Positions 1,920-4,900 of a stretch of 64,000 nucleotides of DNA are shown piece by piece. The notes under the pieces were generated by a model. The model ran no database searches. It worked only from the letters and a program-made list of their open reading frames with translations, and was not told the DNA's origin. Numbering within the stretch: position 1 is the first letter of the stretch; the number at the start of each line of letters is the position of its first letter. Both the position numbers and the translations under genes were made by a program. The stretch comes from Longimicrobiales bacterium (GTDB taxonomy: Bacteria; Gemmatimonadota; Gemmatimonadetes; Longimicrobiales; Gaopeijiaceae), in contig OY730414.1 of NCBI GenBank assembly GCA_963422615.1, positions 2,154,302 through 2,218,301 on the forward strand, read 5' to 3'.

Positions 1920-4900
1920 TTACGAAGACCGTACCGAATTGCTCACCAAGTTCGGCACCTTGCCGCTGGCCATCTGGTCGAATGCATCAAGGACGTAGCG
2001 CTTGGTTCTGTATTCGCTGAACTCCTTGATCTCGTTCTTCTTCAAGGTCGGGAACGTGGCACCTGGAACGGGTGCGTCAAGGATGTACTCCAGGTCCGGT
2101 CGTTCCAGCCCGTACATATGCGCGTAGACCGCATCCAGCTCGCACTTCAGGCAATGACGGCGGTTTTCGTCCCAAACAAAGGGGGGACCCTTGTACCCCA
2201 GGTCGGTGGCGAAACCTTCCATGTCGTGGGCCGTGTAGGTGAGCTCCAGGACCCGGGGAATGACCAGCTCGGCGTAGGTGATTCCGGAACTTGCGACGTC
2301 CAGGTACGCCTCCGGGGGCAGGACGGGGAGCTGCTTGACGATGAAGAGGCTCATGTGAGTGCCGCCGACGGAGAGTCGGGTCGCCCAGTCCAAAGGGATG
2401 CAGTTCATGTTGGCTATTACAAGCGCGGAAGCGATGGTTCTCGCTTGCTCATATCTCAAGACGGTGGCAGTATGGCCCACGGCGCTCTCCGACACAGTAC
2501 TTGCCACCATGGTACGCTCGTTTGTGGCGTTGGTTATGTCCCGAAAGATCTGAAGCCACCGATCCCCATCTTTGAGGTGAATGAGAGGTGCCCCCTCGTT
2601 CATGGCGAACCCCGGTAGGATCGTTGCGATTGAGGTTCGCTCGTTTGTAGCTGCTGCGATATTTCGGAAGGCAAGAAGCCAACCCAGATATTGCGGCCAG
2701 TGGCGCCAACAGCGGCGTAAGGAATCATCGCAGCGATACCTGTTCGCTGGTCTGTCGCTCGGCAAATATCGCGGAGCAGCAGTTGCCAACCAGCTGGGCA
2801 AGGCGGGCGAGTGTCTGTCTGTCTGTCTGTCTGTCTGTCTGTCTGTCTGTCTGTCTGTGAACATATGTTTATTCAGTCTTTTCAAGACTTCCGCTTCGGG
2901 CACCCAATACCGGGGCAGCACAACCTTTGCCGGCTCGGCCTTTTCTTCCGACGTCACGCTCCGGGCCTGTCCCTTCCTGGTGCGCGCTTCCGGAACATCT
3001 TCGAAGGTCGCAAACCTGTGGTCGTACTGGTGAAACAGCTTGGCTTCGTAGAGGGGTAGATAGCGTTCCCCGTCTTTCGTGTACACATTGCCCTCCCGTT
3101 GCCATTCCGATTCTTTCAGCTGCGCACCGGTGCGGAACAGGCCGGAGTCATTGGCCATATCGAACATCCTTTGGAATGCTATTCCCCATGGGTTTCCCGA
3201 CGAACGAAGACGTTTCCGTCTAGCGTGAAGCCTTCGGCCTCCAGCTCCTCTTGGGTCTTGAAGAGGTGAGAGTCGTTGGCCATGTGGAACATCGACTGGA
3301 AGCGAATTCCCCAGGGATTGTGCTCTTCGGCTGGCCCCCCCCCCATTTTGCGCGTCGCGCACCAGCACCCCGGCTTTGCGGTACATTTTGCGCGCGATCT
3401 CCATGTCCCTGCGGGTTCGGAACACAGGACAGGTGCGGGTGTTGGGGTTGAAGAGGGCGAAGTCGGCGGGAGACAGGGCGAACCGGCGCTCCGGGTCCCG
3501 GAGCGCTTCGGTCTGGTGGAGGAAGAACGCGAACTCGGCGTGTTTTGCCGGACGGTCGGCCCCACAAAGGGTAAGCAATGAAAACTTCAACCGGCTGTCG
3601 ATAGCCGGAAAAACCTTCTCCCGGTTTTCGAAGTCGAACAGGCTGACCAGCCTCAGGTCATCAACCACCGCTCTGAAGAAGGTTTTCGTTGAGTGGTCGG
3701 TGGCGATCCCCGTGGGGACAATCACCCCGGCCCGCCCCTCTCCATGCATCAACCGCAGGCCCGTCTCGGCGAAGATGGCGTAGGTATTCACATCCCCATG
3801 AGCGGTCAGGGGAAAGCGGCCCCCCTGGCGCACAAAGCGGCTGGTGGACTCGGCCCGGTGCACCGCCTTTCGGAACTCGGCCGCCAGGGACGGGTTGCGC
3901 TGCGGCAATTCCCGCAAGAGCCGCCCCCGCGCTGCTTTGTTGGGTGCGCGTGCAATACCCCGGTCGCGGCCGGCAAAGAACTCCTTCTCCTGGAGCTTGA
4001 TGCGCTCCCACGGGGGGTTCGACAGCACCACGTCGAAGCCCGACGATCCGGGGCCCCGGTCCTCGAAGACGTCGGGGAACTCCAGGGGCCAGTGGAAGAA
4101 GTTGTGCTGCGCCGCAAGTCTCTCTGCCATCTCAACGGCGGATGGGTCGTCCAACCTGCCGGCGAGGTGGTCCACGAGGGTGGAAGTGGTAATGTGCCCC
4201 AGACCGGGTCGCAACCGCTGGAAGAAGGCCGCCGTCCAGAGATCGCAGGCTTGGCGTTGATGCCTCCAACTCGGGTCCTCCAGCCGATCGGCGAAGATGG
4301 AGCGTTTGCGCTGGATGTGCCGGGAAGAATCGTGGCCGACCGCATCGATTTTGCGAACCCGAGCCGCCCCGGATCGAAGTCCGCCGGTCAACTCCTGCAA
4401 AGGGAAGTCGAGCTGGCCCTTCCGCTGGGTGCGGTTGCGCTTTTTCAGCCCTGTCGAAGTCTTCTTGTGGTCATCCGACACCGGACTGAACGCCCCGTCC
4501 GGAATTCCTTCGCGAAGTCCGCCCAGGCCGAAAACCCCCAGGAGGGAGTCCCCGCACCGGATTCGGTGGTCCAGGAAGGTGAGGGGCTTGTCGGTCTGGT
4601 GGCTTTCGATCCAGAGGGCGACGCGGCAGAGGTCCACCGCCAGAGGATTCTTGTCGACGCCGTAGATCGAATGGGCGACCACGTCCCGGATCGCTTCCCG
4701 AACCCGTTCCGGGGCCGGCTCCTCTTCCCCGGTGCGGATCCTTGCCAGCTCCTTGCCCAACCGCCGGGCCGCCGCAAGGAGGAAGTGCCCCGAGCCGCAG
4801 GCCGGATCGCACACCCGGATCGACAGGACCGCCGTTTCCCTTTCTCGTCCCGGTCACACGCCTCCAGCCGTTCTTGCAGCACGGGATCGAGGGCAGACCG

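Follow-up and report, generated by a model that had tools for sequence, protein, structure and literature searches.

One end of the window, by which we mean the whole 64,000-nucleotide stretch of a Longimicrobiales contig that was analysed, holds an operon on the minus strand. Its first gene (6379..9291) encodes an SNF2/RapA-like helicase resembling ArmA and DrmD, with Pfam matches to SNF2-rel_dom and Helicase_C and a PADLOC match to DpdE/DrmD; against the NCBIfam model of DrmD it scores 343 bits and does not reach the cut-off of 610. The second gene (1920..6376) encodes an N6-adenine methyltransferase with an NPPW motif, about 1,485 residues long in the present repeat state and similar to ArmB, DrmMI and Type IIG enzymes (PADLOC REase_MTase_IIG and DrmMI). 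Its N-terminal 225 residues have no match in Pfam, MmeI_hel alone being matched further on. The third gene, whose 5' part (1..1919) lies in the window before it runs off the end, encodes a YprA-like DEAD/DEAH helicase with an MZB domain (DUF1998), comparable to ArmC and DruE-like in PADLOC. This protein of 1,699 residues is one polypeptide with DEAD, Helicase_C and MZB domains (Pfam, on L072), and at its C-terminus the match to the Vsr-type family DUF559 is weak (E 0.008, with 16.4 bits against a cut-off of 20.6).

Several features of this set differ from class 1 DISARM: helicase and MZB are fused, there is no adjoining PLD gene (DrmC), and the models of DrmA and DrmD remain below their cut-offs. 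The methyltransferase is ARMADA-like (DISARM-related), and the operon genes match the ARMADA gene set (type I-like). ArmD, the GajB-like UvrD helicase that marks ARMADA type II, is absent after the YprA gene; the next gene there (L072:3743-6541) encodes a protein that combines Ig-like domains with leucine-rich repeats and has a stretch resembling M66 peptidases.

Repeat, cassettes and reading frames

In the part of the methyltransferase gene that encodes the target-recognition domain, the minus strand carries a (GACA) repeat (2812..2858; 47 nt, 11.75 perfect units), the top-scoring short-unit array in the window, which we call switch B. Behind it lie three cassettes: B1 (2687..2788) in the +1 frame, which runs on to a TGA at 2602-2600, and B2 (2580..2681) and B3 (2457..2558) in the main frame, the one read in the state assembled here. 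The spacing is 107 nt from B1 to B2 and 123 nt from B2 to B3, and B3 is always made together with the C-terminal domain. The repeat and the three peptides were found where the initial annotation had placed them, with B1 off frame; what it had missed are a G10 tract forming a second switch, two stop-start overlaps and a conserved helix in the third frame. It had also judged the cassettes too diverged in DNA for a recent exact duplication, and their mutual identity marks them as old paralogues, amounting to 13–14 of 34 residues and 50–57 of 102 nt, with a longest exact run of 11 nt. All cassettes are direct and on one strand, and no well-matched inverted repeats were found around them.

An assembly artefact as the origin of this layout is ruled out by contigs from two other sequencing runs, which agree with 2318-2799 and 2866-3566 base for base, without gaps, and are interrupted at the repeat alone. 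At position 4843, the contigs of both runs have one extra C, so the apparent frameshift of the methyltransferase near this position is an error of the present assembly. Slippery heptamers at the junction of the A cassettes (see below) and near 4845 were dropped as candidates, because the frame is wrong and 4843 is an assembly error.

Read from the repeat, the main frame is open through B1 and proceeds through B2, B3 and the C-terminal domain. In the +1 frame, B1 is followed by a TGA within an ATGA (2600..2603), whose start codon, located in the third strand of B2, opens a 227-residue C-terminal chain comprising B3 and the C-terminal domain. The third frame, which just 3' of the repeat encodes an amphipathic helix (2773..2811), stops at another ATGA inside B1 (2725..2728); this overlap in turn opens, in the frame of B1, a relay peptide of 42 residues, which ends at the ATGA in B2. 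No ribosome-binding site is evident ahead of the restarts. As deduced from the reading frames, the loss of one repeat unit would bring B1 in frame and the gain of one unit would select the third frame. We consider it probable that the repeat acts as a three-position slipped-strand switch, which would choose among three recognition modules and give a working enzyme in all three frames.

The layout in related loci

Related loci were drawn from 41 related genomes, from 401 genomes of the class (30 loci returned), from GTDB contigs (47 loci) and from metagenomes (the best 80 of 121). Records without the anchor motif were left out; the 137 records with it yielded 109 distinct loci, of which 39 have at least two cassettes, 60 have one and 10 have none within the contig. 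A repeat at the same place is present in 35 of the 39 multi-cassette loci, with units of 1–14 nt whose length is divisible by three in none of the 35, and in one of the 60 one-cassette loci (L096), whose contig ends inside the cassette. The first cassette spacing equals 2 modulo 3 in 36 of 37 measurable loci. Defined by frames only, 22 of the 39 have the layout of the window, seven have three cassettes in three frames and ten are otherwise arranged. The named carriers belong to Pseudomonadota, Acidobacteriota, Actinomycetota, Chloroflexota and Rhodothermota. In a quick tree of 101 columns, most switch loci fall into one group of 45 rows with a support of 90; they appear to be mostly one spreading lineage, and the locus counts are for this reason not independent. 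Among switch loci whose flanking sequence is long enough, 16 of 18 have the SNF2 helicase upstream and only 4 of 23 have the YprA gene downstream.

Two further observations concern gene copies within a genome. One genome (G005) contains, besides the intact gene, a degraded remnant of the switch region that stands alone some 9 kb away and whose repeat has collapsed (L068:18600-19150), and another (G112) has three close copies of the gene, two of which (L164 and L182) are 96% alike upstream and differ in repeat units and cassette layouts.

The stop-start overlaps are nearly constant among the 22 loci with the window's layout. An (A/G)TGA stands in B2 in all 22 and in B1 in 20, compared to none of 52 anchored single-cassette genes, and at the equivalent places of the other cassettes it occurs in 0–1 of the 22 loci. 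Restarts at valine codons use GTG in 13 of 13 cases, against 69 of 228 background valine codons in the C-terminal part. The relay is intact at each of its steps in 18 of the 22 loci; counting against the relay are a premature stop in the B1 frame in four of the 22 and the lack of a clean third-frame overlap in four, and it is patchier among the seven loci with cassettes in three frames. In six of these seven, the last cassette contains the overlap, which leaves the C-terminal chain without a whole cassette. Two loci (L047, L083) have B3 on a separate gene, which is likely the earlier form. In L034, about 410 nt are inserted between B2 and B3 (L034:5720-6100), and B3 with the C-terminal domain forms a separate frame in every state.

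The stretches that would be read off the main frame bear marks of selection. The off-frame through B1 is free of stops in all 22 window-layout loci and in 19 of 52 single-cassette genes, and the helix pattern is found in 20 of 22 versus 2 of 52. In the core of B1, the synonymous share of single-base codon differences is 0.72 in its own frame against 0.28 and 0.08 in the others, the median nucleotide identity of the B1 region being 57%; in the helix region just 3' of the repeat, it is 0.55 in the third frame against 0.23 and 0.29. Judged by these shares and by the helix pattern, both B1 and the third-frame helix are under purifying selection at the protein level, each in its own frame. In a complex model of the homologue L163, the helix lies in a groove of the C-terminal chain with a score of 0.88 (best control 0.01), a contact agreement of at least 66% and a partner pLDDT of at least 64; of 157 solved pairs, 116 passed the threshold used for docking, as did 2 of 215 mismatched ones, figures that apply only roughly to a three-chain job. 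From this model, we predict that the helix docks on the C-terminal chain.

These results bear on plain ON/OFF phase variation, the usual outcome for repeats in methyltransferase genes, in which only the fused frame would be active, B1 would be a relic and the overlaps would merely prevent polarity on the downstream helicase. Keeping ribosomes on the operon could indeed select for stop-start overlaps by itself. Yet the selection on B1 and on the helix in their own frames and the predicted docking of the helix argue against such a scheme, as do the assembled consensus states of the 22 loci (third frame 11, B1 7, B2 4), 18 of which are non-fused, and we regard it as quite improbable.

Evidence on the length of the repeats themselves comes from several records. 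Equal repeat counts are seen in three pairs of identical alleles, whose members come from separate records but may share samples; the G10 tract has the same length in the contigs of the two other sequencing runs, and these contigs break at the (GACA) repeat. No length variation at the DNA level was seen within these sets, a point that counts against the proposed slipped-strand switch and would be expected if transcriptional slippage or ribosomal frameshifting acted on a fixed gene and every cell made a mixture of three enzymes. Homopolymer tracts such as G10 can slip during transcription, but units of 4–14 nt are typical of replication slippage and not of polymerase slippage, and close relatives differ by whole units: L154 has 14.5 units and L161, from a different species, has 13.5, which sets them one unit apart and in different states. 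We consider such slippage during expression very improbable and prefer a switch set in the DNA.

Recognition modules and the proposed states

The model of a single-cassette homologue (pLDDT 90) shows the cassette as four short strands in the recognition domain of a γ-methyltransferase. It matches M.BseCI with a Z-score of 16.1 (rmsd 3.4, 216 aligned) and MmeI with 10.5 (rmsd 4.2, 207 aligned), and across this range of scores the fold is common to M.BseCI, CamA, BpuSI, PglX and MmeI. In PDB sequence searches, two TRD profiles gave no match, and the matches were otherwise weak ones to methyltransferases. According to a study on Helicobacter pylori, the four-strand module reads the base pairs at positions −1 and −2 of the target (PMC3936762). 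There, in the Type IIG enzymes Hpy99XIV/HpyAXVI, a repeat-driven frameshift adds a second such module; the newcomer pushes out the resident copy, and the enzyme recognizes another motif.

Compared separately, each cassette is closest to a different one of the 52 single-cassette homologues (best hits L040, L145 and L135), with which it shares 19–21 of 34 residues, rather than to its own neighbours (13–14 of 34). The two patches that the initial annotation had proposed as specificity loops vary in single-copy genes as well, and they covary. Over 165 distinct cassettes, the strongest covariation is between positions 5 and 8 (z 10.8; R/D or N/N); another covarying pair is formed by positions 2 and 24 (z 3.9; K/D, D/N, D/H, N/E). 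In MmeI, the recognition pairs are an i/i+3 pair (Y642/K645) and a pair 22 residues apart (E751/N773) (PMC4833311, PMC6007267), the latter with the spacing of positions 2 and 24. We infer the mapping of cassette residues onto MmeI from fold and spacing and not from a residue-level alignment. B1, B2 and B3 of the window have three different sets of covarying residues. Diversity among the cassettes of a locus is only weakly above that of shuffled sets, the loop pair being identical in 15 versus 21 of 66 comparisons (P 0.03), with no significant effect for the 2/24 pair. Apart from this last point, the comparisons support the idea that the B cassettes are alternative recognition modules.

Such modules could in principle be exchanged or deleted at the DNA level via short shared words, as the initial annotation had suggested for the similar G-rich words at the cassette starts. 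Over evolutionary time, cassette alleles have indeed been reassorted between loci, and a few loci have runs of 13–23 nt common to their cassettes. The cassettes of the window, however, share at most 11 nt in a row, and the G-rich words proved to coincide with a Trp codon and are not kept across the 22 loci; no cassette-skipping joint is seen in the contigs of the two other runs, which drop rare variants. Deletion would also leave the fixed frame offsets, the overlaps and the helix unexplained. We hold exchange at the DNA level to be just as improbable as slippage during expression: instead of a crossover, it is probably the reading frame that makes the choice, as dictated by the repeat and coupled through the stop-start overlaps.

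If the repeat is such a selector, its three states would work as follows. In the state assembled here (n), the ribosome would cross B1 off frame and make one chain with B2 and B3, of which B2 would take the slot in the recognition domain. With one unit less (n−1), B1 would be in frame and the chain would stop at the ATGA at 2603-2600, where the ribosome would restart to make the chain of B3 and the C-terminal domain; B1 would then take the slot and lock the two chains together. With one unit more (n+1), the N-terminal chain would carry no cassette but end in the docking helix and stop at the ATGA at 2728-2725, from where the short relay peptide would hand the ribosome to the second ATGA, and B3 would fill the slot. 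Each repeat length would likely provide the enzyme with its own target sequence, and two of the three repeat states would give a split, two-chain enzyme.

That cassettes compete for one structural slot, as the initial annotation had surmised, is likely and has its precedent in H. pylori. We take it that a cassette on the N-terminal chain claims the slot whenever present and that B3 is likely the default module. Several features of the loci lead to this order. In six of the seven three-frame loci, the C-terminal chain starts inside the last cassette and would have nothing to offer, and L047 and L083 keep B3 on a gene of its own. Furthermore, at two positions where single-copy cassettes are hydrophobic B3 has polar residues, only the state without a cassette needs a docking helix, and the added copy displaces the resident one in H. 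pylori.

The alternative is that B3 always occupies the slot and that B1, B2 and the helix are different tethers or add-ons, in which case the states would differ in activity or stringency and not in motif. In all three states, B3 belongs to the same covalent chain as the C-terminal domain, and the AlphaFold model of the window's fused state cannot tell which cassette is used: its pLDDT is 58, with both cassettes below 50, and it places strands on B2 and not on B3, too weakly to count. On the other hand, B1 and B2 retain the covarying base-reading pairs of single-copy enzymes, the three-frame loci have no spare cassette on the C-terminal chain, and replacement of the resident module is what happens in H. 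pylori. A permanent role of B3 therefore seems unlikely to us, and we favour a change of the module that is used.

A second switch lies further upstream in the same gene. It consists of the poly-G tract (G10, 3335..3344, minus strand), followed on the same strand by two cassettes for loop A, which are 125 nt apart and share 21 of 40 residues. A1 (3179..3319), the S...H allele of the loop, is in the +1 frame; the TAG that terminates it shares bases with an ATA read in the frame of A2 (3182-3179). A2 (3066..3194), the R...D allele, is in the main frame. The duplication is found in four distinct loci, the window (3066-3344) and three relatives (L024, L026, L043) with G10–G12 at this place. In all four, the stop of A1 is at the same place, A1 is the S/T...H allele and A2 the R...D allele; these are the two commonest alleles of the loop, and their residue pair has the i/i+3 spacing of MmeI Y642/K645. 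The evidence is weaker than for switch B, given that only four loci are available, that the restart codon is ATA, a poor start, in the window and L024, and that L026 has a stop in the A2 frame; no function was seen for the third frame in these four loci. The G10 tract would choose between A1 in a split enzyme and A2 in a fused one, and together the two switches would give up to six target motifs.

Known systems and wider meaning

The genome of the window has another enzyme with an arrangement of this kind, a Type ISP enzyme resembling LlaGI and LlaBIII (L183:3856-9720, corresponding to G000:C1:1194355-1200219, minus strand). Its specificity domain is split: profile positions 6–101 end the main gene and positions 166–337 are on a separate upstream gene, with tracts of C13 and C20 between the split parts, followed by two and three frame-staggered cassettes, respectively. 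Judged in this one genome, the enzyme seems to have come to a design of this kind independently. We lean, if only slightly, towards a general recombinase-free design for multi-state specificity, in which a repeat would serve as a three-position dial, every frame would have a selected function (cassette, open spacer and docking helix on the same bases), the enzyme would be assembled from split chains with the first-made cassette claiming the slot, and two dials would give six motifs; the Type ISP enzyme, with its C-terminal part on a separate upstream gene, would be an independent counterpart.

The same genome has 22 simple repeats. Several of them, namely (TTGC)10.5, G21, G15 and C11 (G000:C1:730518, 1173122, 30288 and 1199852), lie in frame inside other genes that, by eye, resemble methyltransferases or restriction enzymes. 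A 129-nt array of 10-mers (G000:C1:137933-138061) lies upstream of a gene that by eye is possibly PAPS-reductase-like, and may be a further phase-variable locus.

A repeat in a methyltransferase gene is usually taken for an ON/OFF switch, and where specificity has several states, recombination is held responsible. The repeat of the window appears to give three working states per switch without a recombinase, through triple coding and split-chain assembly. Systems of this type would be undercounted, since their genes are probably taken for pseudogenes in annotation or fragmented by assemblers; seven of our records end at the repeat. If the proposed switch operates, a clone should contain sub-populations that mark their own DNA differently for defence against phages, and its cassettes would constitute a natural library of portable 35-residue recognition modules.

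In its gene content, the operon resembles ARMADA, whose operon likewise unites an SNF2 helicase with a PglX-like methyltransferase and a helicase in which YprA and DUF1998 are fused (bioRxiv 10.1101/2025.09.15.676423). In ARMADA, the YprA helicase carries a Vsr-type nuclease at its C-terminus, the place of the weak DUF559 match in the window. The main text of the ARMADA description does not contain the terms 'phase variation', 'frameshift' or 'specificity'. In DrmMI-like, Cj0031-like and PglX genes, programmed inversions diversify the C-terminal specificity part within a population (PMC9881135). These loci belong to the same enzyme families but use recombination, whereas the cassettes of the window are direct copies on a single strand, among which the reading frame would choose. 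MmeI, from what the available sources state, has the same recognition fold with one fixed module per gene and no switch.

Slippage of repeats in restriction-modification genes is known from SSR phasevarions and from the truncation of the NgoAV hsdS gene, and truncation can change specificity. These systems alternate between ON and OFF or between a long and a short subunit and are not known to have staggered cassettes or a restart relay such as the one proposed for the window gene. The two-state switch of H. pylori Hpy99XIV/HpyAXVI is the closest precedent: as in the window, the repeat is inside the gene ahead of a duplicate −1/−2 module. There, however, the copy is added at the C-terminus, giving two states of one chain, while the window gene has three internal cassettes in three frames and, unlike the H. 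pylori switch, stop-start relays, a putative split enzyme, a predicted docking helix in the third frame and a second, independent loop switch. No description of the three-frame relay layout was found in the literature searched, a search outside which most subscription journals lay. The two-state repeat switch and the DrmMI-like inversion were already known, and the three-frame specificity layout appears to be new.
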